Made by a program: the position numbers and the translations under genes. Shown here in pieces: positions 3,116 through 60,970 of a DNA stretch of 64,000 nt. The notes under the pieces are model-generated. The model had not been told where the DNA came from, searched no databases, and saw only the letters and a list, made by a program, of their open reading frames with translations. The stretch spans positions 33,347-97,346 of the forward strand of contig JAUXWT010000071.1 of the NCBI GenBank assembly GCA_030681475.1, written 5' to 3'. Each line of letters opens with the position of its first letter. Within the stretch, counting starts at the first letter, position 1. This DNA is from Bacteroidales bacterium. Lineage in GTDB: Bacteria; Bacteroidota; Bacteroidia; Bacteroidales; FEN-979.

Positions 3116-4660
3116 ATGAAAAAATTGATACTCCTCCTGATTTCAGTATTTTTTACTGTGCAGATCTTCAGCCAATCCGCTGTTGTCCAGGTAATTACCC
3201 CGAACGGCGGAGAGAATTGGACCATCGGTTGTCCATCCGTGATCCATTGGATCTCTTCCAACACTGCCGGGCCCGTAAAGATCGAACTGTTTAAAAGCGG
3301 CAACTTTTATATGACCATTGCAAGCCAGGTTCCGGCCGGAATCAACACATTTACATGGATCCCGCCATTCAACACGATCTCCGGGAATGATTTTAAGGTC
3401 AAGATCACTTGCATCACCAGTGTTGCAGGATTTGATTTCAGCGACGGTAATTTTTCGATAAACATGGGGACCCTCACGGTCGGATCGCCCAACGGTGGCG
3501 AAACATGGGTAAAAGGGACGATGCACCCGATCCTGTGGACAGACAATATCTGCGACAACGTCAGGATAGAACTATGGAAAGGCGGGGTATTCAATTCCGT
3601 GATCGCTGCATCTGTGCCATCAAACGGGTCATTCAATTGGGTGATCCCCAATGTGAATACGCTGGTTCCGGATAACGATTACAAGGTGAAGATCATGAGC
3701 CTTGCGAATGCAACCGGCACAACTTCCACCGTTCATGATTTCAGTGACAATAATTTCACCATTTTACCGGGACAGAATACCAGCCAAATTACCATTATCA
3801 CCCCGAACGGCGGTGAGAACTGGATCATCGGATGTCCATCCGTGATCCATTGGGTAACCACAACGGCAGCGACAGGTTCAGTCAAGATCGAATTATTCAA
3901 AAACAATTTGTACTATAAGACCATCGCCAGCCAGGTACCGGCAGGGGTAAGCTCGTTCACATGGATTGTTCCTTATTCCGTTGTTCCCGGCAACAATTAT
4001 AAAGTCAAAGTATCAAGCCTGACAAACACCACGGGTTTTGATTTCAGTGACAATGATTTTACAATACACCTGGGAAATATCACGGTTGGATCCCCGAACG
4101 GAGGCGAAACATGGGTTAAAGGGACGATGCATCCTATCCTGTGGACAGACAATATCTGCGACAACGTAAGGATCGAACTATGGAAAGGCGGGGTGTTCAA
4201 TTCCGTTATTGCAGCTTCAGTTCCATCCACCGGTACTTTCCACTGGATGATCCCCAACGTTACCACGTTGGTTCCGGGCAATGATTATAAGGTGAAGATC
4301 ATGAGCCTGTCGCTTGCAGGAAGTACAACGAATATGGTTTTCGATTTCAGCGACAACGACTTTACCATTGCCGGAGGTTCGCCTGTTTTGATGTCCAGGA
4401 TGTCTGACAATATTATTGTATTTCCAAATCCTTTTTCCACTGAGTTGTATGTGAATGTTGCAGAAGCATCCGATTCACCGGTTACTTTTGAGATCGTGAA
4501 CATCAATGGAGGCCTGATACTGTTGCAAACATCCGAATCCATGGCAGAAAATGAAACCGTCCGGTTAAACACATCGGCCATACCTAACGGGAAATATCTG
4601 CTTATTGTAAAAAAAGGGACTAAGGTCATATCCAGCCATCAGATTTTCCTGATCCGTTGA
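3116..4660 (+). CDS. secreted repeat protein (Kre9/KNH-like Ser/Thr-rich beta-sandwich modules x4) with T9SS C-terminal sorting domain
   Basis: There is a signal peptide (MKKLILLLISVFFTVQIFSQ). Four ITxPNGGExW...YKVKI modules are arranged A-B-A-B. The C-terminus IIVFPNPFSTELYVNV...GKYLLIVKKG is a typical T9SS CTD. Confidence 0.75.
   Translation: MKKLILLLISVFFTVQIFSQSAVVQVITPNGGENWTIGCPSVIHWISSNTAGPVKIELFKSGNFYMTIASQVPAGINTFTWIPPFNTISGNDFKVKITCITSVAGFDFSDGNFSINMGTLTVGSPNGGETWVKGTMHPILWTDNICDNVRIELWKGGVFNSVIAASVPSNGSFNWVIPNVNTLVPDNDYKVKIMSLANATGTTSTVHDFSDNNFTILPGQNTSQITIITPNGGENWIIGCPSVIHWVTTTAATGSVKIELFKNNLYYKTIASQVPAGVSSFTWIVPYSVVPGNNYKVKVSSLTNTTGFDFSDNDFTIHLGNITVGSPNGGETWVKGTMHPILWTDNICDNVRIELWKGGVFNSVIAASVPSTGTFHWMIPNVTTLVPGNDYKVKIMSLSLAGSTTNMVFDFSDNDFTIAGGSPVLMSRMSDNIIVFPNPFSTELYVNVAEASDSPVTFEIVNINGGLILLQTSESMAENETVRLNTSAIPNGKYLLIVKKGTKVISSHQIFLIR
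3186..4309. repeat. intragenic tandem duplication, about 607-bp period (A1-B1 / A2-B2)
   Basis: B1 (3473-3703) and B2 (4080-4309) are near-identical at DNA level over long runs, e.g. ctgtggacagacaatatctgcgacaacgt and ctatggaaaggcggggt. A1 and A2 share ccccgaacggcgg.gagaa.tgga.catcgg.tgtccatccgtgatccattgg. Confidence 0.85.
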
Positions 4661-4754: not shown

Positions 4755-7700
4755 ATGAGTTTCTTTGTAAACCTTGTCAGGTTAAATTTGCAGTGGTTTG
4801 GCCGGATGTCGGACTCGTTAATCTTTTTATCTGTTTTTTTATGTGTGTTTCACTCAACGAGTGGATTTCCCCAAGTATTCACCAAGGTAAACTCGGGAAC
4901 CAAGTCGGATATAAGGCAGTTGAAAATTACCCCGGACGGAACCGGGTATTTTCTTACAGATAAAATATTTGCATTTGATGGAAAGTCCTGGAAAAAGGCT
5001 GATTTTCCCGTTGCAGGGTTAATATCCACTTTCGACGCGATTTCCATGGATAATATATGGTACAGCACTTCACTTGAAACAAGTACCTCCATGTTATACC
5101 ATTATCATAACGGGGTCACTGAAACTATTCATGCCCCGTTTGCCAACGACATCACTTCCGTTTTTTTCCAGTCGGAAAACCTTGTGTTTTTTGCAAGTTA
5201 TTCAGATGTAGTAATATATAAAAATCGTGAATTTGAGAAATTCATTCCGGCAGTAATGTGCGGAATCATTAAAGCCATTTACGGGACCGGCAGGGACAAA
5301 TTCTGGGTTTTAAACCAGTCAAATAAGATGTTTTTCTGCAAAAACGGTCAATTTTTAAACATATTCCCTGATAAAACAGTGAATGATTTTCAATTTCTCA
5401 ACACGGATCATGGTTTTTTATTGACAGACGAGGCAATTATTGAGATCCAAGGTATGAACATCATCAGGGAATTTCGGAATAACTTGTTAAAGGATGTCAA
5501 AAAAATCCAATTACACGGGGATGAGATATGGGTAATTGGCACAGGCGGTCTTATCCTGATCCTGAAAGACGGATTATTCCGCCGGATAAATTATGAAGGC
5601 AAAGAAAATCTGAATGCACTTGGAACTGATGGTAATGGTGACATCTGGATCGCAGGGGATAACGGTTTATTACTATACAGCGGAAAGAAACATTTTCCCG
5701 CCTACGATGAATATTATCCCGGGTTTTCAGCTCAAAAATTAACATCCTTTGGGATTGTTGTGGACAATGAATATGGAGTGGCGTTTGCAGATTTTAACGG
5801 CGATAATAAAACAGATATTTACACGGTTTGTATCTCTGACCCTAATAAACTGTTCATCAATCAAACCAATCCGAAACTTGATGTTCCCCTCGCAAATAAT
5901 TTCAGGGAGGAGGCCGTGAAACGAGGGGCTTCCGGGTTGGTAATGGAAAAAGATATCCTGATTCCCTCGGAGTTGAAATTGGGTGTTTCGGTTGCTGATG
6001 TTGACAACGATGGAGATGAGGATATTTACCTTTCCTCATTGAACAGCCATAATAAATTATTGCTTAATAATGGCCATGGTTATTTCCGTAATGTTTCAAA
6101 CCAGAATGCCAGGGCCTGCGAGAATGTTAATCGGTGCAACGCTGCTGCATTTGCTGATGTTGACCTGGATGGCGACCTTGATTTATTCGTTACCAGTGAG
6201 CAGGGTCCCAACAGGTTTTTTATCAATGACGGAAACGGATATTTCACTGATGTTACTGAAACGGCAGGGGTTGCATCATCAGGGGCAGGTATGTGTGCCA
6301 CTTTTGGCGATGTGAACGATGACGGTTATCCCGATCTGGTTGTTACCTTTTGGTATCCGTCAAATAAAATCTATCTCAACGAATCGCGGAATGGTCAGGT
6401 GAAGTTTCGCGATATCACATTATTAACTGATCTCCCGAAAGCCGGTCCGGCAAAAAGCAATGCCGTGGTATTGGCCGACGTTAACAACGATGGACATCCC
6501 GACCTGTTCATCGCGAACCGTCATGCGGTCAACAGATTATATCTGAACGACGGAAAAGGCATTTTCAGGGATGAAACATCCCGGTATTTTGAAAACAAGG
6601 TTTATCTTACCAACGGAGCCGTATTTGCCGATTTCGATCTCGATGGTTATCAGGATTTGTATATAACCAACGTCGGAGACAATGTGATGTACAAGAATAT
6701 CGATGGTAAATATTTCGAAGATGTAACCGGTAAATTCGGCGCAGAAATGAGTGGATATTGTACCGGAAGCGCTGTTGGAGATGTTGACAACGATGGGGAT
6801 GTAGATCTTTATGCCGCAAATTATATCAATGGCAGCAGCATGATGTTCCTTAACAAAATGGAAAAAAGGAATTCTGTCACCTTTAAACTCCAGGGTACCC
6901 GATCGAACAGGAACGCAATAGGTGCAAAAATCTACTTATATGTAGTAAGGCCGGAAAGATCAGGCGATTCACTAGCCGGTTTCCGTGAAATTAGAGGAGG
7001 AGGAGGGTATTGCTCCATTTCAGCAAAGGAGGCGGTTTTTTCGCTCACCCCGGAATTGAACTATTATGCAGTAGTCTTGTTTCCAGCCTCAGGTATCCGT
7101 ATTAAAATAGATAAGATCACAAATGGATCAGTGATCCGTGTAAGTGAGGAAACAGGATTTGCAGCATATAAGACGTTATCAGAAAAAGCCTTGGTCAGGT
7201 TCCTCACCGACAGGGAAATCCAGTTGGAAATAGCTAAATATGTTGCTGTTTTATTGATCCTGTTAATCTATCTGTATATTCAGCGCAGGGGTTCCAGACA
7301 AATGATTGTCACGAGGTTTGTGTTGTGTCTTGCATTATTTATCATTTTCTCACTGGTTAACCAGTTTTTCCTGTTCAGCTCCTCAATTCTGTTATTTTCC
7401 CTGGTACCATCACTTGCAGTCATGGGATTGATTATCCTTCATCTGGTTACCGAAAGGATCCTGCTGAAGCGACAGGCAGAGCGGGACAAAAAGGAATTAA
7501 GAGAGAAAATTTCCCGTGATCTGCATGACGACCTTGCCTCCACACTGGGAAGTATCTCCATATATTCAAATACGTTAAAAGGAATGACGGATGCTACACA
7601 TCCGACTTTTAAAAAGCTCTCCGTTAAAATTGCCGAATTGACACAGACAGCTCTACAGTCGATCACTGACATTATCTGGATGACAGCGCCACGAAATGAT

Positions 7701-21300: not shown

Positions 21301-21628
21301 CAGCGGCAGGCCATTCGCCGATAAGCCCGGTATATTTCTTTCTGTGAAATCGTTGAACGAAGTGGGTACAGGCTTTCTTTTTAGTCAGCTTCCGGGAAAA
21401 CAGGCGCTGATTTATAGGGACAAGGAGAGTGTAAAAACTTTGAGTTTGATGGATGACAAATATGTGTATGAGACAGACCAGGTCACAGCGGTTATCAATG
21501 CAAAAGATTTCGCACTGCTTGATGTAAAGTTTCTGACACCGTGTGTTAAAGAATTCCACTTTGAATTTGCTGCAGAAATGAGTATAATATTGAATGGTGC
21601 AATGCAAATAACAGTGAATATTGAATAA
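18392..21628 (+). CDS. ygfK: YgfK-type Fe-S/flavin oxidoreductase (annotated 'putative selenate reductase subunit YgfK'; DPD-like TIM barrel + GltD-like FAD/NAD(P) domain + 2x[4Fe-4S])
   Basis: The N-terminus PIPLPGLL...FMGIPGSLFY...ETPIGVAAGPHTQLALNIVAAWLCGARYIELKTVQTLDELEVSKPCIDMQDEGYNCEWSQE aligns with E. coli YgfK as I recall it. It carries AIIGAGPAGLSCG (GxGxxG), IIIGGGNTAMD, and the motifs CLRCDVICNVCVSVCPN and CNECGNCTTFCP. At 1078 aa it compares with about 1030 aa in E. coli. The start codon is GTG. Confidence 0.88.
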   Translation: MSGKFHPIPLPGLLRLTLAEISQNRFMGIPGSLFYRPHPTDRFGFTRYGRYLETPIGVAAGPHTQLALNIVAAWLCGARYIELKTVQTLDELEVSKPCIDMQDEGYNCEWSQELKVNESFAEYLNAWIIIHILHIELGFTGSVGTLFNMSVGYNLEGIMNANVQWFFDRMLDCSTELDKARESIRGIYPGIDKIDIPSKISDHVTLSTMHGCPPDEIERIGLYLISEKKLHTTIKLNPTLLGPEVIRGLLNTRFGFSTVVPDTAFEHDLKYPDAIQIIESLGLASDKNGLQFGVKLTNTLECKNNKNIFGDGETMMYMSGRALHPISVLLARKMQNDMGGSLDISFSAGADCFNVADVLDCGMRPVTVCSDLLKPGGYGRLFQYIENLRSHNQVNKSALQNLNNYADRVVDNPGYYKHLLSDPSIKTSRELGWFDCIHAPCTDTCPTNQDIPEYMHHTAHDDIPAAFDTIFMTNPFPSVTGMVCDHLCELKCTRVNFDNALHIREIKRFVAENTPPPSPPPKGEGQVARAAIIGAGPAGLSCGWYLRNAGFEVDIFEQKNVAGGMVSAAIPSFRLTGEAIDNDIQRILASGIHLHDNQYIDAARFKLLQRDYDLIFLAAGAQQSIRLNIEGIDSSGVIDPLEFLFDVRQNKTTRLGQHVIIIGGGNTAMDSARTAFRMVGKEGSVTIVYRRTVKEMPADHGEIKAVQEEGIRIIELANPVRVQSVGGRVTGLLCSRNILTLNGNDDRPSPRAIPGSEFEISCDTIIPAIGQQMAVDFLEHDQLRPVQGSYKTGVPKLYIGGDAMRGASTAINAIADGRKAAEEIIAQTAHLLPSPARGGVECGVEDIPQLMHRKAIREYGIHPAETALDRRRNFDLVMSSFTAEQAKTEAARCLRCDVICNVCVSVCPNLANFGYRVEPVRYSLEKAVLNEDGSIVIEKDKVFKVDQPFQILNIRDLCNECGNCTTFCPTSGRPFADKPGIFLSVKSLNEVGTGFLFSQLPGKQALIYRDKESVKTLSLMDDKYVYETDQVTAVINAKDFALLDVKFLTPCVKEFHFEFAAEMSIILNGAMQITVNIE
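19931..19973. repeat. GC-rich palindromic-element copy inserted in frame in ygfK (encodes TPPPSPPPKGEGQV)
   Basis: ACCCCACCCCCATCCCCACCCCCAAAAGGAGAGGGGCAAGTGG is related to the reverse complement of 20881-20925 and to the intergenic copy at 39048-39095. It lies immediately 5' of the GxGxxG codons. Confidence 0.6.
20881..20925. repeat. GC-rich palindromic-element copy inserted in frame in ygfK (encodes LLPSPARGGVECGV)
   Basis: The core CCCCTCCCC-TGCAA-GGGGAGGGG (20887-20909) is a perfect 9-bp GC stem. It is followed by TCGAGTGTGGGGTA, which resembles the TCAGGGGTTGAGGTA arm of the copy at 39048-39095. Confidence 0.65.
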
Positions 21629-21669
21629 AAAACATTGAAAAGTGAATAAATAACAGTGAATAGTTATGA
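21607..21669. repeat. 7-nt-period tandem array spanning the ygfK stop and the next ATG
   Basis: The units read aataaca gtgaata ttgaata aaaaaca ttgaaaa gtgaata aataaca gtgaata gttatga. The 14-mer AATAACAGTGAATA occurs twice (21607-21620 and 21649-21662). Confidence 0.6.
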
Positions 21670-23328: not shown

Positions 23329-24633
23329 ATGCCTGAAAAATTCCACTTTGAATGTGTAAACTGTAAAACTGAATATCCCGGCGACAAGGTCATCTATTTG
23401 TGTCCATCATGCGAAGCGTTGAACAAACCCGGCATTCCCCCGCAGGGTGTTCTGAAGACCATATACCCTTATGAAAAAATTCGCGGCTCAAATCCTGTGA
23501 ATAACCTTTTTGAACGGTTGCAGCGCGAACAGTTTCTTTCATTGCTGCCAATTAAAGGGATGAATTCATGGACTGGATTGCATGTCGGGGATACACCTTT
23601 ATACAAGGTGGACAAGTGGACAGGTGGGCAGGCGGACAGGCGGACAGACGGACAGGCGGACAGGCGGGGGGATGAGTTTGAGATTTACCTGAAAGATGAT
23701 TCGCAGAATCCAACATTTTCTTTTAAGGATCGAGCTTCAGCGCTTGTTTCGGCCTGGGCGCGTGAAAATGGAATAAAAACCCTGGTCGCTGCTTCCACCG
23801 GAAATGCTGGATCGTCACTCGCAGGTATTTGTGCATCACAGGGACAAAAGGCGATGATCGTCGTGCCTGCAGCGGCACCGCTGGCCAAACTTACACAGAT
23901 ACTCATGTATGGAGCAACGCTGGTTCCGGTCAGGGGTACTTATGATGATGCTTTCGACCTGAGCGTGCAGATCTCTGAAAAATATGGTTATTATAACCGG
24001 AATACAGCCTATAATCCACTTACCATTGAAGGCAAAAAGACAGTTTCATTCGAACTGTTCCACCAACTCGGAAACCAGGTTCCAGACCGGATCTTTATCC
24101 CGGTTGGGGATGGGGTCATCTTTTCCGGTGTTTGCAAGGGATTTGAAGATCTGCTGAAACTTGGGATCATCAGCCGGATGCCGGTTCTGGTAGCAGTTCA
24201 GGCGGAAGGGAGCAGCAACCTGATCAACAATTTGAAAAACGACTCATTCGATGTCAAGCCATCCAGGACAATTGCCGATTCTATTTCCGTGGATGCGCCC
24301 CGATGTTTCTTCCTGACACGTGACTATATTGAGAAATATCACGGGGAGTCTGTTTCAGTATCAGACCAGAAAATTTTGACGGCATCGCTTCATCTTTCTC
24401 ATTCAAGGGGAATATTTTCCGAACCTGCAGCGGTTGCAGCTTATGCCGGCATGTTGAAATATCGCGATCAGGGATTGATCCCGCCCGGTACAAAAAATGT
24501 GGTGTTGCTCACCGGAAGCGGACTGAAAGATCTGACCGCCGTTCAATCATCCATCCAAATACCGGAGGCTGTTGAGCCGGATATCCGATCGGTTGAAGCA
24601 ATTATCCAAAGGCATTTTTCACATAAATCCTGA
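23329..24633 (+). CDS. threonine-synthase-like PLP enzyme with N-terminal Zn-ribbon
   Basis: A CxxC...CxxC ribbon (CVNCKTEY...LCPSCEA) starts the protein. The PLP-Lys motif is NPTFSFKDRAS, followed by ASTGNAGSSLA. Length and order are typical of the ThrC family. It contains a low-complexity insert, GGQADRRTDGQADRRGDE. Confidence 0.7.
   Translation: MPEKFHFECVNCKTEYPGDKVIYLCPSCEALNKPGIPPQGVLKTIYPYEKIRGSNPVNNLFERLQREQFLSLLPIKGMNSWTGLHVGDTPLYKVDKWTGGQADRRTDGQADRRGDEFEIYLKDDSQNPTFSFKDRASALVSAWARENGIKTLVAASTGNAGSSLAGICASQGQKAMIVVPAAAPLAKLTQILMYGATLVPVRGTYDDAFDLSVQISEKYGYYNRNTAYNPLTIEGKKTVSFELFHQLGNQVPDRIFIPVGDGVIFSGVCKGFEDLLKLGIISRMPVLVAVQAEGSSNLINNLKNDSFDVKPSRTIADSISVDAPRCFFLTRDYIEKYHGESVSVSDQKILTASLHLSHSRGIFSEPAAVAAYAGMLKYRDQGLIPPGTKNVVLLTGSGLKDLTAVQSSIQIPEAVEPDIRSVEAIIQRHFSHKS
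23608..23671. repeat. 8 x 8-nt tandem repeat inside the ThrC-like CDS
   Basis: The units read GTGGACAA GTGGACAG GTGGGCAG GCGGACAG GCGGACAG ACGGACAG GCGGACAG GCGGGGGG. Confidence 0.85.
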
Positions 24634-48453: not shown

Positions 48454-48457
48454 AGGG

Positions 48458-48509
48458 TATGACGAATATGGGAATGACGGATATGCGAATGTCGAATGAT
48501 GAATGATGG
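48458..48509. repeat. 7-8-nt tandem array (GAATGNN units) bridging the acyl-CoA ligase stop and the sigma-factor start
   Basis: The units read gtatgac gaatatgg gaatgacg gatatgc gaatgtc gaatgat gaatgat gg. The sigma ATG (48503) lies inside the array. Confidence 0.7.
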
Positions 48510-49126
48510 ATTCAAGCCAGCCATTGGATGAACGTACACTCGAACTACTCTTCAGGGATAATTTCACCGGATTGTGCCGGTTTGCATATGGGTATGTGAA
48601 GGATGAGGAAGCAGCGAAGGAAATAGTGCAGGATGCTTTTGTGAATCTTTGGGAAAGGCGGCAAATGATCGACCTTTCAAAATCAGTTAAAAGCTACCTG
48701 TCAACTACGGTTCGAAACAAATGCCTCAACTATCTGCGCGACCATAAAAAATTCAGCAGCGACCTTATTGAACTCGAAAATCTTTCGGGTGATGCAAAGT
48801 ATGACCATGCCGATAAACTTGTTGAGGCCGATATCCGCGATCAGATTGCCCGGGCAATTGATGAATTACCCGAAAAGTGCCGAGAGATCTTCATACTCAG
48901 CCGCAATCACCATTTGAAATACCAGCAGATCGCTGATCATCTTGGGATTTCCATTAAAACAGTTGAGACCCAGATGTCAAAGGCCCTGCAGCACCTGCGC
49001 CACCGCCTCGCCGAATACCTGCCAACATTTATTTTCTTAATTTCACTACCTGGCTACCTCACCACCTCGCTACTTATTTTCACCATTTCACCATTTCACC
49101 ATTTCGCTATTTATTTATCAGGGTAA
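48503..49126 (+). CDS. ECF-type RNA polymerase sigma-70 factor (Bacteroides expansion family) with repeat-encoded C-terminal tail
   Basis: Region 2 is IVQDAFVNLWER. Region 4 is ELPEKCREIFILSRNHHLKYQQIADHLGISIKTVETQMSKAL. The last ~35 aa (LPTFIFLISLPGYLTTSLLIFTISPFHHFAIYLSG) are translated from an 8-nt repeat array. Confidence 0.85.
   Translation: MMDSSQPLDERTLELLFRDNFTGLCRFAYGYVKDEEAAKEIVQDAFVNLWERRQMIDLSKSVKSYLSTTVRNKCLNYLRDHKKFSSDLIELENLSGDAKYDHADKLVEADIRDQIARAIDELPEKCREIFILSRNHHLKYQQIADHLGISIKTVETQMSKALQHLRHRLAEYLPTFIFLISLPGYLTTSLLIFTISPFHHFAIYLSG
49043..49114. repeat. 8-nt tandem array at the 3' end of the sigma ORF
   Basis: The units read tcactacc tggctacc tcaccacc tcgctact tattttca ccatttca ccatttca ccatttcg ctatttat. 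Confidence 0.7.
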
Positions 49127-49163: not shown

Positions 49164-50210
49164 GTGAAAACAAATTCGACATATCATATTGATCTGATCT
49201 CCAGGTATTTTTGTGGAGAGGCATCCCCGGAGGAGATCCATGATCTGGAGGTGTGGGTCAAAACTGATCCGGCAAACTCAGCGCTGTTTTCAGAATATCA
49301 GAAAGTCTGGAATGCAGTTGAGCATGCACGTATCGGATCCTCCATTGATCTCAACCGGGAGTGGAAAAAACTCACCTCAAGCCTGAAGATCAGGTCGGAA
49401 AATCTGGAATCTGAAATCGTAAATCCAAAATCCAAAATCCGAGATCTGAAATCTGAAGTCGTAAATCGTAAATCCCGGTTCCTCGCCTGGTCTCTTCGGG
49501 TTGCTGCCATTTTTATATTACTTGCCGTCCCGGCTTTCTTGCTTTATCGTTACATAACCTTGCCAGGCGACAAACAGTTGGTCGCAGGGAGCGAGGTAAT
49601 TGAGCAAACGCTGCCCGACGGTACCACCGTTACCTTGAACGCCGGTGCAACGCTCTCATATCCTTCCCGGTTTGAAGGTTCTTCCAGAATAGTCTCCCTG
49701 CAAGGCGAAGCATGGTTTGAAGTTTCACATGATAAAACCAAACCATTTATCATTGCAGCCGGAAATGCCAGGATCCGCGTGATGGGCACCTCCTTTTTCG
49801 TAAATACAAAAACCTGGGATGATACCAGGGAAATTATTCTGTCGGAAGGGGTCGTAAAGGTGTACTATGAAAATAATCCCGAAATAATGGCCTTCTTGTT
49901 CCCGGGTGATAAAGCCGAAATGACCTGCGACGGTTATGCCATCTCGAAAACCACAAACAGCGACGTCAACTTTCTGGCGTGGAAAACAAAACATATGGTT
50001 TTTAACAACACCCCCCTGAATGAAGTTGCCGCCATGCTGACAAAGGTTTACCACACAAATATACGTTTGTCCGGCGACAGGCTCAGTGATTGCCGGATAA
50101 CCACTACCTTTGACAAGCAGTCACTTGAATCTGTATTGAATGTACTCAAAGCCACACTTGATTTACAGGTCACGGATACCGGTGCGGGAATCGAACTCTC
50201 CGGCCATTAA
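49164..50210 (+). CDS. FecR-family anti-sigma factor / transmembrane sensor
   Basis: The N-terminal anti-sigma motif is LISRYFCGEASPEE...L..W. A single TM is present (AWSLRVAAIFILLAVPAFLLY). The periplasmic FecR domain shows LPDGTTVTLNAGATLSYP and GEAWFEV. The start is GTG. It lies between the ECF sigma factor and the STN-containing TonB receptor. Confidence 0.88.
   Translation: MKTNSTYHIDLISRYFCGEASPEEIHDLEVWVKTDPANSALFSEYQKVWNAVEHARIGSSIDLNREWKKLTSSLKIRSENLESEIVNPKSKIRDLKSEVVNRKSRFLAWSLRVAAIFILLAVPAFLLYRYITLPGDKQLVAGSEVIEQTLPDGTTVTLNAGATLSYPSRFEGSSRIVSLQGEAWFEVSHDKTKPFIIAAGNARIRVMGTSFFVNTKTWDDTREIILSEGVVKVYYENNPEIMAFLFPGDKAEMTCDGYAISKTTNSDVNFLAWKTKHMVFNNTPLNEVAAMLTKVYHTNIRLSGDRLSDCRITTTFDKQSLESVLNVLKATLDLQVTDTGAGIELSGH
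49400..49476. repeat. 11 x 7-nt tandem repeat inside the FecR CDS (cytoplasmic linker)
   Basis: The units read aaatctg gaatctg aaatcgt aaatcca aaatcca aaatccg agatctg aaatctg aagtcgt aaatcgt aaatccc. They encode NLESEIVNPKSKIRDLKSEVVNRKS. Confidence 0.85.
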
Positions 50211-52857
50211 ATATCCTTTTCTCGTTATTATCCTCTTTCTTCTGTTTTCATTACCGCTCAAATCACAGGATCTGCAGCAAAAGATCACCCTGACAATGAC
50301 TGACAGATCCATATCGGACATCCTTGAAGAGATCACCAGGATTTCTAAGATAGAATTTTCATATAATCCACAGGAACTACCGGTCGAAAAGCATATTACC
50401 GTGAATATAAAAAACAAACCCATCCTGGTTATTCTTGAAGAGGTGCTCACTCGCAATGGGATCGGTTACCAGGAGGTTGAGAACCACCTGGTGCTGAAAC
50501 AGCACAATAAGGAAACACCAGGGAAAAACAGTACCGGATCCGCAGTATCTTCCCGTTTTACACTCAGCGGCTATCTCAGGGACAAACGTACCGGTGAGGC
50601 GCTGATCGGCGCTAATGTTTATATAAAGGGCACAACCACTGGAGCCATGACAAACGGTTATGGCTTTTATTCCCTTACGTACAGCGGGGGAAAATTTCCG
50701 GTCGCATTCTCATACATGGGATACAAAGAGGTGTTGTTCGAGGTGAATTTGAATGAAAATACCCGTTTATCGGTTGAAATAGAGGAGGATAAACTGGAAA
50801 TGAGGGAAGTAGAGATCGTTGCCCACGATCCGGAATCACATATCGGTAATACCCAGATGAGTGAATTCAGGTTTTCGCAGAAAACACTGTCGCAACTGCC
50901 CGGATTCGGGGGCGACATCGACATCATCAGGGCTTTGCAAACGGTGCCCGGGATCCAGACATTCGGCGACGGGTCGGCCCTGTACTATGTTCGCGGCGGC
51001 AACAGCGATCAAAACCTGTTTCTGATTGACGAGGTGCCTGTTTATAATCCAGCTCATCTGTTTGGTTTCTTTTCGGCGTTTGCCCCGGATGCGATCAACA
51101 ATGTACAGGTCTATAAAGGTGATTTTCCGGCCAAATTTGGTGGGCGACTTTCCTCAGTTATTGATATCATGGCTCGTGAAGGCAACATGAAACGGTTCGG
51201 CTTTTCAGGGAACGTCGGCCCTTATGCTTCCAACATTACCCTGGAAGGGCCAATCGTTAAAGACCGGGCCTCTTTTTTCATCTCAGGACGCGTTTCAACG
51301 CTAAATTGGCTGAATAACCTGCGAAATTTCAACAAGAGTTTTGATTTCCGGTTTTTCGATATCAATGCCAAGTTGAATTACCGGCTGAACGATAATAACC
51401 GTTTTTTCTTCACACTTTATACCGGAAGAGATGTTTTAAGCCCGTATCGCTCGACGGAGGTTAATTCTCTGGGGATAAACTGGGATAACCTGGTGGGGAC
51501 ATTCCGCTGGAACCATCTTTTCAGCAACCGGATCTTCAGCAATTCCACCCTGAACTACAGCCGTTACAAGTACTCCATGAGTCTTCCACAGGAGCAGAAT
51601 GGTTACTGGAACTCATCAATCTCCAACGTCACGGTCAAAACTGACCTTTCGTGGTACCTGAATACACGAAACATCATCCGTTCAGGATTTGAGATTACGT
51701 ATCACCATTCCAATCCCGGGAATGTTACCCTTGAGAACGGTAATGATCCGCGGAAGGTGCCCTTGGTCGCCGAATACCATTCCATGGAATATGTAATTTA
51801 TGCATCGAATGACCAGCATTTCGGAAAACGGTTTTTGTTGCGGTATGGATTAAGGCTGCCGATTTGGCAGAATATCGGTCCAACGGAGGTTTACTACTTT
51901 GACCCACTGCATCAGGTGATCGACACCATCAAATACAGACCAGGAAATGCATATTACACGGCCTTCAGCCCTGAACCGCGGCTGACTGTGCAGTTTCGGG
52001 TCAATGAAAAATCCTCGGTGAAGGCAAGTTACAGCCGGACTACCCAGTTTCTTCAACTGCTGTCCAACTCAACAAGTCCTTTTACCTCCCTTGAGGTTTG
52101 GGCGCCATCAGGTCCAAATATAAAACCACAAACTGCCGACCAGGTTGCCTTGGGCTATTTCAACAATTTCACCCGGCCGAAAATCACCCTCTCCGCCGAA
52201 GGATATTATAAGTGGTTCCACGATCATCCAGATTACCGCGACCACGCCAACTTGCTGTTCAATACGCTGATTGAAGGGGAGTTGCGTTTTGGTAAAGCAT
52301 GGTCCTTTGGCATTGAACTCATGCTGCGAAAGACAACCGGACAAATTACCGGCTGGATAGGATATACCTGGTCGAAAGCAATGATCCGGACGCCTGATAT
52401 CAACGGTGGAAAAGTTTATCCTGCCAATTATGACCATCCGAATAATATTTGTATCAACCTTTGCTGGGATAATAAGAAGCATTGGATACTAACGGCCAAC
52501 TGGATCTATCTGACCGGTGGCGCTATCACAACACCTGTCGGATTTTTTTACCACAATGGAGTTTCCGTTCCCATTTACGGCGGTAAAAACAATGACCGAT
52601 TGCCCGATTATCACCGCCTTGATGTGTCGGCGACCTATGTGTTCAACAAGCCGGGAAACCGCTATCACCACAGCGTTGCTTTAACGCTATATAACGCCTA
52701 TGGCCGCTTTAACCCCTTTTCAATCAATTTTAATAAATTAATGGATAAGGATGACTTTGTCGTACCTGCAAACCTGGGCGGTTCGCATCTCCTGGTCCCG
52801 ACTTCGGTCTCTGTTTCAAGTATCATTCCTTCCATAAACTATAAATTCAGGTTCTGA
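50140..52857 (+). CDS. TonB-dependent receptor with N-terminal STN signalling domain and CarboxypepD_reg-like domain (FecA-type transducer)
   Basis: The STN domain is ISDILEEITRISKIEFSYNPQEL...ILVILEEVL...GIGYQ. A CarboxypepD_reg-like segment follows (LSGYLRDKRTGEALIGANVYIKGTTTGAMTNGYGFYSL), then a plug and barrel. The C-terminus ends in a terminal aromatic, ...INYKFRF. The true start is uncertain: the ATG at 50140 overlaps fecR, and the GTG at 50182 gives a cleaner signal peptide. Confidence 0.85.
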   Translation: MYSKPHLIYRSRIPVRESNSPAIKYPFLVIILFLLFSLPLKSQDLQQKITLTMTDRSISDILEEITRISKIEFSYNPQELPVEKHITVNIKNKPILVILEEVLTRNGIGYQEVENHLVLKQHNKETPGKNSTGSAVSSRFTLSGYLRDKRTGEALIGANVYIKGTTTGAMTNGYGFYSLTYSGGKFPVAFSYMGYKEVLFEVNLNENTRLSVEIEEDKLEMREVEIVAHDPESHIGNTQMSEFRFSQKTLSQLPGFGGDIDIIRALQTVPGIQTFGDGSALYYVRGGNSDQNLFLIDEVPVYNPAHLFGFFSAFAPDAINNVQVYKGDFPAKFGGRLSSVIDIMAREGNMKRFGFSGNVGPYASNITLEGPIVKDRASFFISGRVSTLNWLNNLRNFNKSFDFRFFDINAKLNYRLNDNNRFFFTLYTGRDVLSPYRSTEVNSLGINWDNLVGTFRWNHLFSNRIFSNSTLNYSRYKYSMSLPQEQNGYWNSSISNVTVKTDLSWYLNTRNIIRSGFEITYHHSNPGNVTLENGNDPRKVPLVAEYHSMEYVIYASNDQHFGKRFLLRYGLRLPIWQNIGPTEVYYFDPLHQVIDTIKYRPGNAYYTAFSPEPRLTVQFRVNEKSSVKASYSRTTQFLQLLSNSTSPFTSLEVWAPSGPNIKPQTADQVALGYFNNFTRPKITLSAEGYYKWFHDHPDYRDHANLLFNTLIEGELRFGKAWSFGIELMLRKTTGQITGWIGYTWSKAMIRTPDINGGKVYPANYDHPNNICINLCWDNKKHWILTANWIYLTGGAITTPVGFFYHNGVSVPIYGGKNNDRLPDYHRLDVSATYVFNKPGNRYHHSVALTLYNAYGRFNPFSINFNKLMDKDDFVVPANLGGSHLLVPTSVSVSSIIPSINYKFRF

Positions 52858-53678
52858 TGTACAGGATAACGACACTCATTTGCCTACTGTGGCTTCTGCA
52901 GGGATGCGTAAAGCAAACCTCATGGGAGCCCAAGGATGAATTAACCAGGATGCTCATTGTGGATGCCATCATCACGGATGAAGTAAAAGTACACCAGATA
53001 AAACTTACTTATCCTGTTTCCCAATTGAACCAGGCGCCCGAACCCGTCGCCGGTGCAGGAGTGTTGATAAGCAATGAAGACTCAACCTGGCAATTAATCG
53101 AATCACCTGTTCATTCGGGGATATACAATACTCCGCCATTCTTTTTCGCACGCCTTCCGAAAACATATACCCTTCTCATCTCGGTTGAAGGCAAGGTTTA
53201 TACAGCCAAGACCACAATGACCCCCGGCGCTGTTTTCGGAGAACTGCGCTATGCCAGGAACAAGGATAACAATTTATATTATGTTGATTGGGTGGCTAAT
53301 GCCTTCAGCGCAGAAAAAGCAGCCATGTGGGAGTTGCTGCTCGACTGGACGAAAGTACCCGGGTATGAACAACTTGACTCCCTGGAAAACCATGCCAGAT
53401 TGCTTTTTTACACTTTACCCACCCTCGACGTCAGCGAAGTTTTTGCCCCGATGATGGAATCGGTCTTCTTTCCATCAGGTACGATCATTACCGAACGCAG
53501 ATATTCCCTGATCCCGCAGCACGCTGAATTTATCCGTGAAATGCTGCTTGAAACAAACTGGACCGGCGGATTGTTCCCCGTGGCGCCAGCCAATGTGGGA
53601 ACGAACATGAGCAATGGCGCATTCGGGTACTTCGGGGCCTGCGCCGTCACTGAATTGTCGTTAACCGTAATCCCATAA
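52857..53678 (+). CDS. DUF4249-like lipoprotein (TonB-receptor partner)
   Basis: The lipobox is LWLLQGC. Its ATG shares 1 nt with the receptor stop (TGATG). The size (273 aa) and the position after a CarboxypepD_reg-type receptor fit DUF4249. Confidence 0.5.
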   Translation: MYRITTLICLLWLLQGCVKQTSWEPKDELTRMLIVDAIITDEVKVHQIKLTYPVSQLNQAPEPVAGAGVLISNEDSTWQLIESPVHSGIYNTPPFFFARLPKTYTLLISVEGKVYTAKTTMTPGAVFGELRYARNKDNNLYYVDWVANAFSAEKAAMWELLLDWTKVPGYEQLDSLENHARLLFYTLPTLDVSEVFAPMMESVFFPSGTIITERRYSLIPQHAEFIREMLLETNWTGGLFPVAPANVGTNMSNGAFGYFGACAVTELSLTVIP

Positions 53679-53833: not shown

Positions 53834-54766
53834 ATGAAAACGAAAAACCTGTTCCGCCTCACATTCCTGGTCCTTGCCATTTTCGGGCTTTCATTGACCG
53901 GCTGTCAAAAAGAGAAAAATGTAAATCCTCCGGCTGATTCTTCCTCGCTTCAGCAACTCTCAAATGATGAAGAATCTGTTGAGTCTGCCCTTAACGAGTC
54001 GATGAATGACGTTAACAACCTTCTTTCAAACGGAAACCTGAAATCAACCCAGATGCTTCCATGCAATGCAACAATTGATTCGACCGTTGTTGTAAACGAC
54101 ACATTAACAATTTACATAACTTATAATGGTTTGAACTGCAGCGGTACCCGCTACCGTACAGGCAAAGTTGAAATCAAAAAGCATGTCGGCACTCACTGGT
54201 ACCAACAAGGCGCCACTGTTAAGGTCAGGCATATCAACTTCACGATCACGAAAGTTTCTAACCAGAAATCAATTACCCTCAACAGTGTCCATGTCCATAA
54301 AAATGTTAGCGGCGGTGTGATATGGCAGCTCGGAAACGGGATGAACGCAATCGTTCACAGAACATGGGGTCATGCCAATGTGACTTTCGATGACGGCACA
54401 ACCAAGATCTGGAACGTGGCAAGACAGAAGACATTCACCGGAACGCCTCCCGCAAACCTGGTACTTACCATCGACGGATTTGGAACAGTCGGTGATTATG
54501 CTAATCTACTGGTCTGGGGACTCAACCGCCAGGGGGAACATTTCTACACCCAGATCAACCAACCGGTGGTCCATCGCCAGGTTTGCGACTGGGACCCGGT
54601 TTCCGGAATAAAGAAACACGCCATCCCTTCTGATTCAAAAAGCGCCACCCTCACCTTTGGCTACAACAGCAATAACCAGCCGATCACCGGCAACGAATGC
54701 CCGACCAAGTTCAGGGTTGACTGGCAGAAGCAGAACAATTCGGGAACAGTGTACCTCTGGTTATAA
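53834..54766 (+). CDS. hypothetical lipoprotein
   Basis: A signal peptide and lipobox are present (FGLSLTGCQKE). I recognise no family. It is the last gene of the sigma/FecR/receptor block. Confidence 0.5.
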   Translation: MKTKNLFRLTFLVLAIFGLSLTGCQKEKNVNPPADSSSLQQLSNDEESVESALNESMNDVNNLLSNGNLKSTQMLPCNATIDSTVVVNDTLTIYITYNGLNCSGTRYRTGKVEIKKHVGTHWYQQGATVKVRHINFTITKVSNQKSITLNSVHVHKNVSGGVIWQLGNGMNAIVHRTWGHANVTFDDGTTKIWNVARQKTFTGTPPANLVLTIDGFGTVGDYANLLVWGLNRQGEHFYTQINQPVVHRQVCDWDPVSGIKKHAIPSDSKSATLTFGYNSNNQPITGNECPTKFRVDWQKQNNSGTVYLWL

Positions 54767-56111: not shown

Positions 56112-56160
56112 ATATTTAAATTCGAAATTCGACATTTAATATTCGATATTCGTTATCCCT
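56112..56160. repeat. 7-nt tandem array (ATTCGNN units) in the HMGL/ACAD junction
   Basis: The units read atattta aattcga aattcga catttaa tattcga tattcgt tatccct. The array overlaps the stop codon at 56153-56155. Confidence 0.7.
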
Positions 56161-58011: not shown

Positions 58012-58113
58012 AGTCTATTCGTTATCAATTTAAATGCAAAAGTCAAAATTAATGGTTTTATCATACCCGTCATACAAACACCTTCATCCTCAAATTTTAA
58101 AATCCCCAAATTT

Positions 58114-60126
58114 TCAAATCTCTGTTTCTTCAAATTCCACAAGCGCCGTAACAGTCTCCACCCGTTCGTTTACCGATACGTTCACGGATTTCACAACGGC
58201 ATCACGGGGGGATACGATCAGGTTTTCCATTTTCATGGCTTCGATGATCAGGAGCGGGTCTCCTTTTTTTACGCTTTCGCCACCCTTGACCTGTATCCTG
58301 ATCACCTTTCCGGGCATGGGAGAGGTAACGTGGTTGCTGTCATGCCCATGCATGTCAAATCCGGATGAAAATACCGATTCGGCGAGAATATCATGACGTT
58401 TCAATCTGAAAATATGACCATGACAGCTTACATAAGCTTGATTTTCAGAATCTTCAGATACCCAGACTATGTAGTTGTGGTGATCGACCGTAAAATCGAT
58501 GCGGTTTGGTGAATAGGCAATGGGAGATGAATGAAACGCTTTTCCCCTGATTTCAAATAAAAAATTATTTTCAGCATACCCAGGAACCTTCACAGTGACC
58601 TCCATCTCTTCGAATTGAAGTCTGATATTCATTAAGTTACGCCAATATCCGACAGTCTCCCAGAGATTGGGTTTTTCGAACCAACCCGGAATTGTTTTGA
58701 GGTTGCGTTTCAGGGTGAACATCAGGTAGCCAATCATGGGGACATGATCCGGGATTTCGTTTTTATCATTAATGATTTCCTTGGTAAGCGCTGCAGTGTG
58801 TTCATCACAGAATTTCGTGGTAATGGTGTTGGAAATAAATGCTTCACTCTGCAGTAACTTGACCAGGTAGGTGATGTTTGTCCTGATGCCGTGGATGATA
58901 TAGTCTTCTAACGCCAACAGCATGATCTGGCTGGCTTCATGCCGGTCTTTTCCCCAAACGATGAGCTTGCATATCATCGGGTCGAAAGAGCTTTTAATTT
59001 CCGTGTTGGCTGTAATACCGGTGTCTATCCGGATTCCCGGGATTTCGGGTTCTTTGTAGAAGGTCATCCTGCCTGGTGATGGCTGGAAATTATTGGCAGG
59101 GTCTTCAGCATAGATCCGGCATTCGATGGCATGACCGTGTTGATGAATATCCTTTTGTTGTAACCTGAGCTTATTCCCGGCTGCCACGTGGATCTGTTCC
59201 TCAACCAGGTCGATTCCGGTAACCATTTCAGTTACAGGATGTTCAACCTGGATTCGGGTGTTCATCTCAAGGAAATAATAATTTAAATCTTTATCAACCA
59301 GGAATTCGATGGTGCCCGCGTTGTTGTATCCGATGGCCTTCCCGATGGCAACGGCTGCCGCACCCATTTTTTCACGTATTTCCGGGGTGAGGGTCGGGGA
59401 GGGAGATTCTTCGATAATTTTCTGGTATCGCCGCTGGATGGAACATTCACGCTCATAAAGGTGTATTACATTCCCAAAATTGTCACCCAGTATCTGAATC
59501 TCGATATGACGAGGTTCTTCAACGAATTTTTCGATATATACAGTCTCGTCACCGAAATAGGCCAGCGCCTGGCGGCTGGTTGCCTCAATAGCTTCCGCAA
59601 GTTCGCTTTCCTTGTAAACGATACGCATCCCCTTGCCGCCACCTCCTGCTGCGGCTTTTAGCAATACCGGAAACCCGATCTTGTGCGCTGTCTTTTCAAG
59701 TTCCTGCTTTGTCCCGGTTACGCCATCGGTCATCGGGATTTTAATCTTTTTAACGAAGGCACGTGCCTCGATCTTGTTCCCCATGATCTTCATAGCTTCG
59801 GGATGTGGGCCGATAAAGATGATCCCGGCTTCAACACACGCTTCTACGAATAAAGGATTTTCTGCCAGGAAACCATATCCGGGGTGGATGGCATCACAGC
59901 CTGTCTGTAAGGCCACATCAATGATCTTCGGAATGTTCAGATAGGTGTCGCTGAGTTCAACCTCTCCGATGCACCAGGATTCATCGGCCATGGTAACATG
60001 TAATGAGTCGGCATCAACTTGCGAATATATTGCCACAACCTTGATCCCTAATTTTTTCGCGGAGCGGATTACCCGTACGGCGATTTCGCCCCGGTTCGCG
60101 ATGAGTATTTTGTGAATAACGTTCAT
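58114..60126 (-). CDS. biotin-dependent acyl-CoA carboxylase alpha subunit (biotin carboxylase + BCCP; methylcrotonyl-CoA carboxylase by context)
   Basis: KILIANRGEIAVR and the ATP-grasp motif GGGGKGMR are present, along with EMNTRIQVEHPVTE. The C-terminal biotinyl-Lys motif is IIEAMKMEN. Confidence 0.9.
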   Translation of the reverse strand: MNVIHKILIANRGEIAVRVIRSAKKLGIKVVAIYSQVDADSLHVTMADESWCIGEVELSDTYLNIPKIIDVALQTGCDAIHPGYGFLAENPLFVEACVEAGIIFIGPHPEAMKIMGNKIEARAFVKKIKIPMTDGVTGTKQELEKTAHKIGFPVLLKAAAGGGGKGMRIVYKESELAEAIEATSRQALAYFGDETVYIEKFVEEPRHIEIQILGDNFGNVIHLYERECSIQRRYQKIIEESPSPTLTPEIREKMGAAAVAIGKAIGYNNAGTIEFLVDKDLNYYFLEMNTRIQVEHPVTEMVTGIDLVEEQIHVAAGNKLRLQQKDIHQHGHAIECRIYAEDPANNFQPSPGRMTFYKEPEIPGIRIDTGITANTEIKSSFDPMICKLIVWGKDRHEASQIMLLALEDYIIHGIRTNITYLVKLLQSEAFISNTITTKFCDEHTAALTKEIINDKNEIPDHVPMIGYLMFTLKRNLKTIPGWFEKPNLWETVGYWRNLMNIRLQFEEMEVTVKVPGYAENNFLFEIRGKAFHSSPIAYSPNRIDFTVDHHNYIVWVSEDSENQAYVSCHGHIFRLKRHDILAESVFSSGFDMHGHDSNHVTSPMPGKVIRIQVKGGESVKKGDPLLIIEAMKMENLIVSPRDAVVKSVNVSVNERVETVTALVEFEETEI

Positions 60127-60127
60127 A

Positions 60128-60910
60128 TTATCTCACCCAGTTCGGTTTACGTTTTTCGAGAAATGCATTCATCCCCTCCTGCCCTTCTTCAGATGCCCTG
60201 ATATCTGCGATCATATGGGCGGTAAAGTCATATGCTTCAATAAATGTGAGGTTGTTGGCAACTTCATGGATCAGGGTCTTGCAATGGCTCATGGCTTTCG
60301 GCCCGCTTGTTCTCAAATGAGCGATCACCTCTTCGATGATTTCACCAAGGATCTCATCGGGTACCGACTTATTTACCAGCCGGTATTTTTCAGCTTCTAT
60401 CCCTTTTATCCTTCTGCCGGTAAGCATCAGTTCCTTAGCCCCATATTCTCCAATCCGCTTGATGACATAAGGTGAAATGCACGCCGGAACAATCCCTATT
60501 TTAACCTCACTTAACGAAAAGGTCGCATCATCGTTGCAGTAAGCGAGATCGCAGGCAGCGAGCAGCCCGTTGGCCCCGCCGAGCGCCACGCCATGAACAA
60601 CGGCCAGCGTTGGTTTCGGGCAATTATAGATGGACAGGAAACATTTTGAAAGCAACAGGCTTTCAGTGTAATTCTGGTTATAGCTGTTCTGCGATGCAGA
60701 TTTCATCCAATTCAGGTCAACGCCTGCACAGAACGACTTACCCTTTCCGCGGAGGACGACGCAAAGAACTGAAGGGTCAAGCTTTTCAAAACAGTGAGTC
60801 AACTCGCGCAACATGGTTTCATCAAAGGCATTGTGAACCTCAGGGCGGTTCAGCCAAACAGTGAGAACACCGTTATCAAAATTAGTTTCGATGGTTTTAT
60901 ATGTGCTCAT
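60128..60910 (-). CDS. enoyl-CoA hydratase/isomerase family (methylglutaconyl-CoA hydratase by context)
   Basis: The crotonase fold shows FCAGVDL and GVALGGANGLLAACDL. The start is assigned to the ATG at 60910 (MSTYKTIE). The upstream ATG at 60931 lies inside the 7-nt repeat array. Confidence 0.8.
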   Translation of the reverse strand: MSTYKTIETNFDNGVLTVWLNRPEVHNAFDETMLRELTHCFEKLDPSVLCVVLRGKGKSFCAGVDLNWMKSASQNSYNQNYTESLLLSKCFLSIYNCPKPTLAVVHGVALGGANGLLAACDLAYCNDDATFSLSEVKIGIVPACISPYVIKRIGEYGAKELMLTGRRIKGIEAEKYRLVNKSVPDEILGEIIEEVIAHLRTSGPKAMSHCKTLIHEVANNLTFIEAYDFTAHMIADIRASEEGQEGMNAFLEKRKPNWVR

Positions 60911-60970
60911 TTGTCCCTTGTTACTTGTCATTTGTCACTTGTCACTTGTCACTTGTCACGTGCCCTTCGT
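60908..60970. repeat. 9 x 7-nt tandem array (CACTTGT consensus) filling the MCC-beta/hydratase junction
   Basis: The units read catttgt cccttgt tacttgt catttgt cacttgt cacttgt cacttgt cacgtgc ccttcgt. The array runs from 2 nt after the MCC-beta stop (60972) to the hydratase start. Confidence 0.85.

Follow-up and report, generated by a model that had tools for sequence, protein, structure and literature searches.

The gene for the O-acetyltransferase NeuO (Escherichia coli K1/phage CUS-3) contains a heptanucleotide variable-number tandem repeat (VNTR), 5'-AAGACTC-3', in 3-53 perfect repeats, the number of which varies within cultures, and it is OFF in 65.6% of 64 genomes (PMC13001214). In Pseudomonas aeruginosa, a frameshift in the G5 repeat of mucA (mucA22) truncates an anti-sigma factor and frees AlgU, a sigma factor with extracytoplasmic function (ECF); the frameshift is selected in some environments, and the repeat is a hot spot, not a classical fast switch (PMC2781719). 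Here we describe a heptanucleotide array within the gene for a FecR-like transmembrane anti-sigma factor (sigma regulator) in a 64,000-nt stretch of DNA from a Bacteroidales bacterium (contig JAUXWT010000071.1 of assembly GCA_030681475.1; the whole stretch is referred to below as the window). With a probability of about 60%, this array is a translated heptanucleotide microsatellite that has been domesticated as a linker of variable length, changing as a slow in-frame VNTR with occasional truncating slips.

NeuO is the closest formal analogue of this array, and the mucA G5 tract is the closest functional one. As in NeuO, the unit is a coding 7-mer, three units specify a heptapeptide, the full-length product is made in the right phase only, and a slip of one unit truncates the product. 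The arrays described here are, however, short, mostly imperfect and stable among close relatives, with OFF alleles at none of 51 loci from unbiased scans and at two found by a targeted search; they also form an internal linker of a regulator, whereas the NeuO repeat lies at the 5' end of an enzyme gene. With mucA the present locus shares a slippage-prone repeat, a truncation hot spot, in the gene for a transmembrane anti-sigma factor. The mucA tract is, on the other hand, a run of a single nucleotide that falls in the periplasmic part of an RseA-type protein, without a conserved multi-unit array, and its reversion is mostly via suppressors, whereas here a 7-nt array constitutes the cytoplasmic linker of a FecR-type protein and its position is conserved through a clade.

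The gene itself resembles the FecA-FecR-FecI system and the SusC-like signalling systems of Bacteroidetes, in which an ECF sigma factor and a FecR/FecR_C protein are combined with a TonB-dependent receptor bearing an N-terminal extension. Chromosomal nonsense mutants of E. coli fecR (codons 82 and 202) have constitutively active FecI, and fragments FecR1-59 to 1-116 likewise give constitutive FecI activity; FoxR and FiuR fragments act as FecR fragments do, whereas the FpvR fragment inhibits instead (PMC9249621). In Bacteroides thetaiotaomicron, anti-sigma genes cut after the cytoplasmic domain make the linked locus signal-independent in its expression, plasmids inserted upstream of the receptor gene have polar effects, and the anti-sigma gene BT4248/9 is assembled via site-specific recombination (PMC2709373). 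Truncations retaining the N-domain are activating in both of these model systems. No repeat array has been described in the linkers of those systems, and the receptor gene is followed here by genes for a DUF4249 lipoprotein and another lipoprotein, not by those for SusD or FecBCDE.

Genomes rich in short-unit arrays are known as well. For long simple sequence repeats (SSRs) of 5-11-nt units (Mrazek et al. 2007, as summarised in PMC4679880) and the cyanobacterial short tandemly repeated repetitive (STRR) sequences, including TAACTGA, heptamers are described as dominant and mostly intergenic near gene ends, and the units found by such surveys in coding regions as multiples of three. The same heptamer-rich pattern of arrays in gene gaps is seen in the window and in related genomes, but here a 7-nt array has been kept for long in evolution within a coding region and is read through. 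Our literature search found no report of heptanucleotide arrays in anti-sigma factor linkers, nor of such a phenomenon in Bacteroidetes, and the repeat-array linker is therefore rated as a variation on known kinds, not as a separate category.

The linker array and the gene that contains it

The array occupies positions 49400-49476 of the forward strand and consists of 11 AAATCNN-type units, which are in order AAATCTG, GAATCTG, AAATCGT, AAATCCA, AAATCCA, AAATCCG, AGATCTG, AAATCTG, AAGTCGT, AAATCGT and AAATCCC; AAATCNN is exact in eight of them, with one mismatch in each of the other three. Tandem Repeats Finder (TRF) assigns to it a period of 7, 10.9 copies and 78% matches. A four-unit pattern with up to three mismatches is found in eight overlapping registers at the array and nowhere else in the 64 kb, while shuffled sequences give an expectation of 0.02. 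The array has a super-period of 21 nt (7 aa) and encodes aa 79-105 (ENLESEIVNPKSKIRDLKSEVVNRKSR). Its purity is low, the longest perfect run being 20 nt or 2.9 units, and its sequence is identical in an independent Logan assembly. In the original prediction, which was made by a model from the sequence, the units were said to lie in frame; this is right in that the open reading frame (ORF) reads through them, and it means only that, as the span of 77 nt is not a multiple of three.

The gene (49164-50210, forward strand) starts with GTG and encodes 348 aa. Pfam FecR (PF04773) is matched at aa 144-232 and FecR_C (PF16344) at aa 278-340 (E = 9.2e-14 and 9.7e-15; each match exceeds its gathering score). 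In the AlphaFold model (mean predicted local distance difference test score, pLDDT, 85.6), four helices (aa 5-16, 22-34, 36-56 and 63-73) are followed by a low-pLDDT stretch, a single transmembrane (TM) helix and a beta-rich domain. The helices make up the N-terminal cytoplasmic domain (aa 5-73, 49176-49382), which is presumed to bind sigma. The TM helix covers aa 102-131 in the model (49467-49556), with the hydrophobic core LAWSLRVAAIFILLAVPAFLLY at about aa 107-128, and its residues R112, A114 and A115 are conserved among orthologues. The segment encoded by the array is about the lowest-confidence part of the model (pLDDT below 50 at aa 74-100), and the linker is predicted to be disordered. 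A profile of the orthologues matches, over the periplasmic part, the putative anti-sigma factors of PDB 4m0n/4m0h (E ~1e-41) and also PupR (6ovk_R); PF16220/DUF4880 gives a faint match in orthologue products. The protein (P0001) is 100% identical to 'FecR domain-containing protein [Bacteroidales bacterium]' of an NCBI metagenome-assembled genome (MAG) and is identical also on a Logan contig (L001) of run SRR13727517. In its FecR/FecR_C domains, N-terminal helices and single TM helix, the product corresponds to a FecR-type membrane regulator. The eleven heptamer units between its N-domain and TM helix are confirmed, as had been proposed.

The array has features of an SSR contingency locus, namely a coding unit whose length is not divisible by three and a frame that is shifted upon a change in unit number. 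When one or two units were added or removed in simulation, the stop codons fell within the array and gave products of 83-99 aa, in agreement with the earlier statement that one-unit slippage ends translation after the N-domain; addition or removal of three units kept the frame, with an ORF of 355 or 341 aa. The stops after a slip are TGA from ...TCTG/A... and TAA from ...CGT/AAA.... The unit in the phase with ATC before its last two bases is always ...CGT or ...CCG and never ...CTG, as selection against stops would yield. Since the FecR gene is overlapped at its 3' end by the receptor gene downstream, receptor expression might fall as well after a premature stop. The window allele is intact ('ON'), and slippage should be rare in it because the array is degenerate. 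Programmed ribosomal frameshifting was considered and dropped, no X XXY YYZ slippery site being found in the used frame on reading the sequence.

Orthologous linkers: one position, many units

The FecR-like protein has hundreds of full-length relatives, and 160 related loci were obtained by scanning collections of genomes and metagenomes. A period-7 signal is present in the 100-200 nt that separate N-domain and TM helix in the loci closest to the query (36-76% identity; L002, L003, L008, L012, L014, L017, L020, L024/L096, L085, L087, L090 and L101), and among periods 3 to 12 it is the only one that stands out at the linker; it was found in none of about 100 more distant loci. The array-bearing loci are orthologous, as the synteny of an AMP-binding enzyme, sigma, FecR and receptor is conserved in them. 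The array at this conserved position is inherited through the orthologue clade, while the unit sequence turns over by clade, so that unit type tracks protein clades. AAATCNN is the unit in the clade of the window, the members of which are 56-95% identical to each other; ATCCCAC is found in L012, L024, L090 and L100, AGTCGGC in L014, L085 and L087 (their sister L017 has ATCCYGC), CGTCACG in L020 and GATTCGR in L101. The encoded heptapeptides (KSEIRNP, IPHPTSH, SRQSAVG, SRILHPA, VTRHASR and DSRFGIR) are unrelated among clades, which indicates that the shared features are the DNA period and the position, not the peptide. The longest perfect runs of orthologue arrays are 4.7-6.1 units at most.

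The linker length was taken as the interval between the conserved W67 and R112 in an alignment of 153 orthologues. It ranges from about 19 to 57 aa, and a ladder of 19/26/33/40/47/54 aa, that is, of 7-aa or 21-nt steps, fits 77 of the 153 linkers. Among pairs that are 60-75% identical outside the linker, multiples of 7 aa account for 37-45% of the non-zero length differences, where about 14% is expected. P0038 and P0167 (89% identical) differ by 14 aa, equal to six heptamers, and in L017 a super-unit of 21 nt is present in 3.7 copies that are 96% identical. The linker length changes that survive are mainly three-unit steps.

Such changes are seldom seen between close relatives. The linker length is the same in 159 of 160 pairs at 93% identity or more, and ten clusters at 90% identity (about 55 distinct sequences) contain no linker length variants, the length differences inside them being due to alternative start codons, contig ends or a scaffold gap; the truncated protein P0069 was rejected as a linker event for the last of these reasons, a scaffold gap of Ns (L166). 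L003 and L162/L163 are separated by 8-10% nucleotide divergence (proportion of synonymous differences, pS, 0.19-0.25 outside the linker), and the unit numbers of both arrays, including a pure 4.7-unit run, are identical between them. The closest pair with different arrays is L014 and L085, which are 95% identical outside the linker and a 48-nt in-frame block apart. Apart from the alleles L170 and L173 described below, variation of repeat number among close relatives with frequent out-of-frame alleles, as is expected of a contingency locus, was not seen in the orthologue set. The comparison of repeat counts in related genomes that had been suggested for this array gave mostly equal counts among close relatives and a rare one-unit change, between L170 and L171.

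Single-unit slippage does occur in orthologues, mainly in those with purer runs. The 51 orthologue loci with at least 40% identity from the unbiased scans all gave a single in-frame tblastn match, but a targeted N-terminal search disclosed two natural out-of-frame alleles. When the N-terminal 106 aa were compared with 1.8 billion representative proteins, several short proteins were returned. The first allele (L170; P0170, 147 aa) (ENA ERZ27313350) shares 99.4% identity over 500 nt with the intact L171 from another sample (JGI 3300009175) and differs by exactly one extra CGTCAAT unit (+7 nt), so that a pure run of 5 units becomes one of 6; the remaining gene is undamaged in the new frame, and seven further distinct members of the L170/L171 cluster are all intact. 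The second (L173; P0313, 103 aa) is carried by a 76-kb contig of MAG GCA_026391715.1, on which the gene order is the usual one. In this allele the frame of the N-domain stops at a TAA in a 9-unit array, and a different frame is open through the TM and periplasmic part; a change of +1 or -2 units within units 1-6 restores an ORF of 357 or 350 aa, typical for the family. In a tblastn control, L170 and L173 each gave two matches, which lie in different frames and are separated at residues 80-104. A plain-sequence search with the 106-aa N-terminal part yielded one candidate and no match, and a profile of N-terminal parts yielded seven matches, P0313/L173 included, which are short proteins only and thus unsuited to an ON:OFF ratio. 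P0173/L172 was not counted as a truncated allele, as its array runs straight into the 5' end of polA: on this 914-nt contig (372-914), the FecR N-domain and an array of GCAATCC x3.9 are followed by the 5' end of the DNA polymerase I gene in place of the TM and periplasmic part, so that either the array was the site of a rearrangement or the assembly is chimeric.

Several orthologue linkers have structures of their own. In L003, a 30-nt GC-rich, partly palindromic element (AACCGGAGCGAAGCGGAGCTCGGCGGAGCC; 4274-4303) lies within the linker array and is read as NRSEAELGGA. Its reverse complement, with 1-2 mismatches, is found at the same place in L167 and L169 (1813-1842 in both), where it is read as GSAELRFAPV, and a diverged copy is found in L011 (45-70); the element is in frame in either orientation and is not present in the window. 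The L017 linker array (4251-4336; GCATCCY units) recurs in inverted form 763-801 nt downstream, where the FecR and receptor genes meet (5088-5133), and the inverted arms (38-41 nt, 83-89% complementary) flank the part encoding the TM helix and the periplasmic domain, a geometry that could permit inversion. Inverted linker arrays of this type were found in none of the window, L003, L014 and L020, and in particular no inverted copies of the array lie near the FecR gene of the window that might open an inversion-switch route. In L087 (4270-4348), four heptamers make up a super-unit of 28 nt, present in 2.8 copies that are 96% identical. The ORF is intact even though every step of 28 nt would put it out of frame, which suggests multi-step events or passage via out-of-frame intermediates. 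The predicted protein P0267 of the representative library (278 aa) consists mostly of about 25 copies of the heptad IWNLKSE and is a translated array of about 75 AAATCTG-type heptamers, so that far longer arrays of this type exist in public metagenomes.

Neighbouring genes and arrays elsewhere

The ECF sigma factor gene lies directly upstream of the FecR-like gene and the receptor gene directly downstream, an arrangement conserved in orthologues, and the gene order at the locus is ECF sigma factor, FecR-like protein, TonB-dependent receptor, DUF4249 lipoprotein and second lipoprotein, all on the forward strand, as had been read from the sequence. The sigma factor (48503-49126) has 207 aa and Pfam matches to Sigma70_r2 and r4_2, which end at aa 165-167. 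The receptor (50182-52857) is composed of an STN-like N-terminal extension, CarboxypepD_reg, Plug and the barrel; its frame is open from 50140, and the gene caller picks the GTG at 50182 on the identical Logan contig. At 24.0 bits, the STN match falls short of the 28.4 that Pfam sets as cut-off, and in orthologues it is likewise weak or faint. The DUF4249 lipoprotein (52857-53678) has the lipobox LLQGC, and the other lipoprotein (53834-54766), 310 aa without a known family, has the lipobox LTGC. Promoter and terminator scans of the operon gave no signal exceeding the shuffle expectation.

The window contains about ten arrays of the 5-11-nt-unit kind in 64 kb, nearly all in short gene gaps, and those based on 7 or 8 nt are at 21606, 23606, 48455, 49043-49105, 56114, 58086 and 60907. 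At the orthologue loci, 40 of 87 arrays have periods of 7, 14, 21, 28 or 35 and 18 have periods of 8, 16 or 24, and they are mostly intergenic or at gene edges. With numerous independent 5-11-nt arrays that are mostly non-coding and in which heptamers are prominent, the genome fits the long-SSR or STRR-like class. The gaps with arrays of 7-, 8-, 15-, 16- or 21-nt units are 21606-21664, 48455-48508, 56114-56152, 58086-58120 and 60907-60959, each having its own unit sequence. The one at 48455-48508, a 15-mer/7-mer tandem array by TRF, separates the AMP-binding enzyme gene from the sigma gene. The unit of the array at 56118-56152 (AAATTCG x5) is nearly that of the FecR linker, and AAATTCG units are present in some orthologue linkers (L162).

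Arrays are also found in two other ORFs. An 8-mer array (AGGCGGAC x7.8, 87% matches) at 23606-23667 lies within a threonine synthase-like coding sequence (ORF 23329-24633) and encodes ...KVDKWTGGQADRRTDGQADRRGDE... just ahead of the conserved motif IYLKDD..NPT.SFKDR; it aligns with, and replaces, the matching N-terminal segment of solved threonine synthases. In the sigma ORF, the last ~35 codons (49015-49126) are made up of a 16-mer x1.9 array (49043-49073) and a perfect 8-mer (TTTCACCA) x3.5 (49078-49105). Orthologous sigma products range from 177 to 219 aa, and the sigma tail accordingly looks array-derived and variable.

A probable slow repeat and its alternatives

The locus probably behaves as a slow VNTR and a truncation hot spot, not as a fast programmed switch, in view of the degenerate allele, the stability in close relatives and the rarity of OFF alleles. 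In the mechanism that we propose, arrays with 7- and 8-nt units would be made by replication slippage in this organism and its relatives and would settle in weakly constrained sequence, that is, in intergenic spacers and in the FecR linker, where the array would form the disordered cytoplasmic connection from the sigma-binding N-domain to the TM helix of the anti-sigma factor. Selection for an open frame would filter linker changes to three-unit (7-aa) steps, and units giving stops in the used phase would be replaced, leading to the 21-nt super-period. Out-of-frame slips, mainly in the purer orthologue runs, would truncate the protein past the N-domain and would presumably leave a sigma-binding N-fragment; by analogy with E. 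coli FecR and with B. thetaiotaomicron, this would uncouple the ECF sigma factor from the outer-membrane signal. The suggestion that the array may be tolerated filler comes closer to this than a switch does, but it understates the matter, as the position is conserved in a deep clade and evolution proceeds by 21-nt steps.

Some results sit uneasily with a domesticated microsatellite. A period-7 array is retained down to about 40% protein identity while its unit turns over completely, which is a long time for a neutral microsatellite. Linker arrays are found at about 12 of 50 loci in ~6.5 kb (~2/kb), compared with 19 in 37.5 kb of non-coding DNA (0.5/kb), which makes the linker more than average 'free' sequence, although this density figure is inflated by ascertainment and shared ancestry. 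The out-of-frame allele L173 is the assembly consensus in its MAG, so it is not strongly counter-selected there. Between L003 and L162/L163, finally, linker codons 67-113 have synonymous changes at 2 of ~33 sites and the rest of the gene at 43-56 of ~227, in a comparison that covers one lineage only, no second pair being of equal length and sufficient similarity; the low synonymous divergence in the array hints at homogenisation, DNA-level constraint or local recombination.

These points have to be weighed together with a possible adaptive contingency locus, in which reversible one-unit slips would make a soluble N-fragment and would toggle the ECF sigma factor and the TonB-receptor/DUF4249/lipoprotein operon in a subpopulation, and which we regard as considerably less probable than the domesticated repeat. 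The unit is not a multiple of three and sits at the one position where truncation spares the whole N-domain, and period and position are kept while the unit sequence turns over, but the array of the window has only 2.9 perfect units, and the unit number is constant among close relatives, even for the pure run of 4.7 units at 8-10% DNA divergence. L170 and L173 are each one slip from ON with undamaged downstream coding sequence; on the other hand, all 51 loci of the unbiased scans are in frame, whereas the proven switch NeuO has 3-53 repeats and 65.6% OFF genomes. The higher density of arrays in the linker than in intergenic DNA is also as such a locus would have it, but these genomes also have arrays in intergenic DNA and within the gene for a housekeeping enzyme. 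Truncations activate in E. coli and B. thetaiotaomicron, and BT4248/9 of the latter is already assembled by recombination, although the N-fragment of FpvR inhibits and does not activate, and a premature stop upstream of the overlapping receptor gene could cut receptor expression by polarity, which is known from plasmid insertions. The phase switch put forward in the original prediction keeps its geometry, its E. coli precedent, which the literature bears out, and the one-unit slips in L170 and L173. For the allele of the window it is unsupported, given the degenerate array, the 51 of 51 orthologues in frame and the 159 of 160 close pairs of equal length, and for the family the case is weak. 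A related and similarly tentative proposal is that a freshwater/sediment Bacteroidales clade keeps a frameshift-prone repeat at the junction of N-domain and TM helix as a conserved evolvability device, with the unit drifting.

Selection may instead act on the protein, the linker needing a heptad peptide (KSxIxNx and variants, K/R/H-rich near the membrane) and the DNA period being a by-product; the peptide might, for example, provide positive-inside charge, spacing, or recognition by a protease or ClpXP after intramembrane cleavage. We regard both this explanation and these roles as improbable. K-S-[EK]-I-[VR]-N-x does stand right before the TM helix in many orthologues, and every unit type yields heptads with K, R or H in the used frame; the peptides of different clades are nevertheless unrelated, the segment is predicted to be disordered, and the linker length varies from ~19 to 57 aa. 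The proportion of nonsynonymous differences (pN) of the linker is as low as that of the rest of the protein in one lineage, but the period is 7 nt and not just 21, and pure 7-nt runs cannot be created by peptide selection. It is very improbable that assembly or sequencing of metagenome DNA has produced the arrays or the variant alleles as artefacts. In favour of this, every sequence comes from a MAG or a metagenome contig, the contig with the +7 allele L170 has only 1,057 nt, and L172, in which an N-domain and array are joined to the unrelated polA, is a possible chimera at the repeat. Against it, the arrays are 30-80 nt long, below the read length and below the k=141 of L170, the Logan assembly made independently has an identical array for the window, intact ORFs in dozens of independent assemblies from different projects contain arrays at these codon positions, and L173 is on a 76-kb contig.

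Coding repeats are normally purged or serve as fast switches if their unit length is not divisible by three. The array described here is an intermediate case, a 7-nt microsatellite kept at one codon position while the protein has diverged to about 40% identity, and the locus is a natural system for how slippage-prone DNA becomes domesticated as a protein linker. In practical terms, such arrays can split anti-sigma genes in MAG annotation, as in L173, and can break contigs. To our knowledge, phase variation in the phylum Bacteroidota has so far been known mainly as invertase-based, and the locus bears on whether environmental Bacteroidota diversify the regulation of TonB-dependent uptake by repeat slippage besides DNA inversion. 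Clean truncations arising from the array should, by precedent, make the ECF sigma factor signal-independent. If the repeat is indeed an evolvability device, it would represent SSR-based bet-hedging of trans-envelope signalling, in which slips would lock the operon in a signal-independent state in part of the population.

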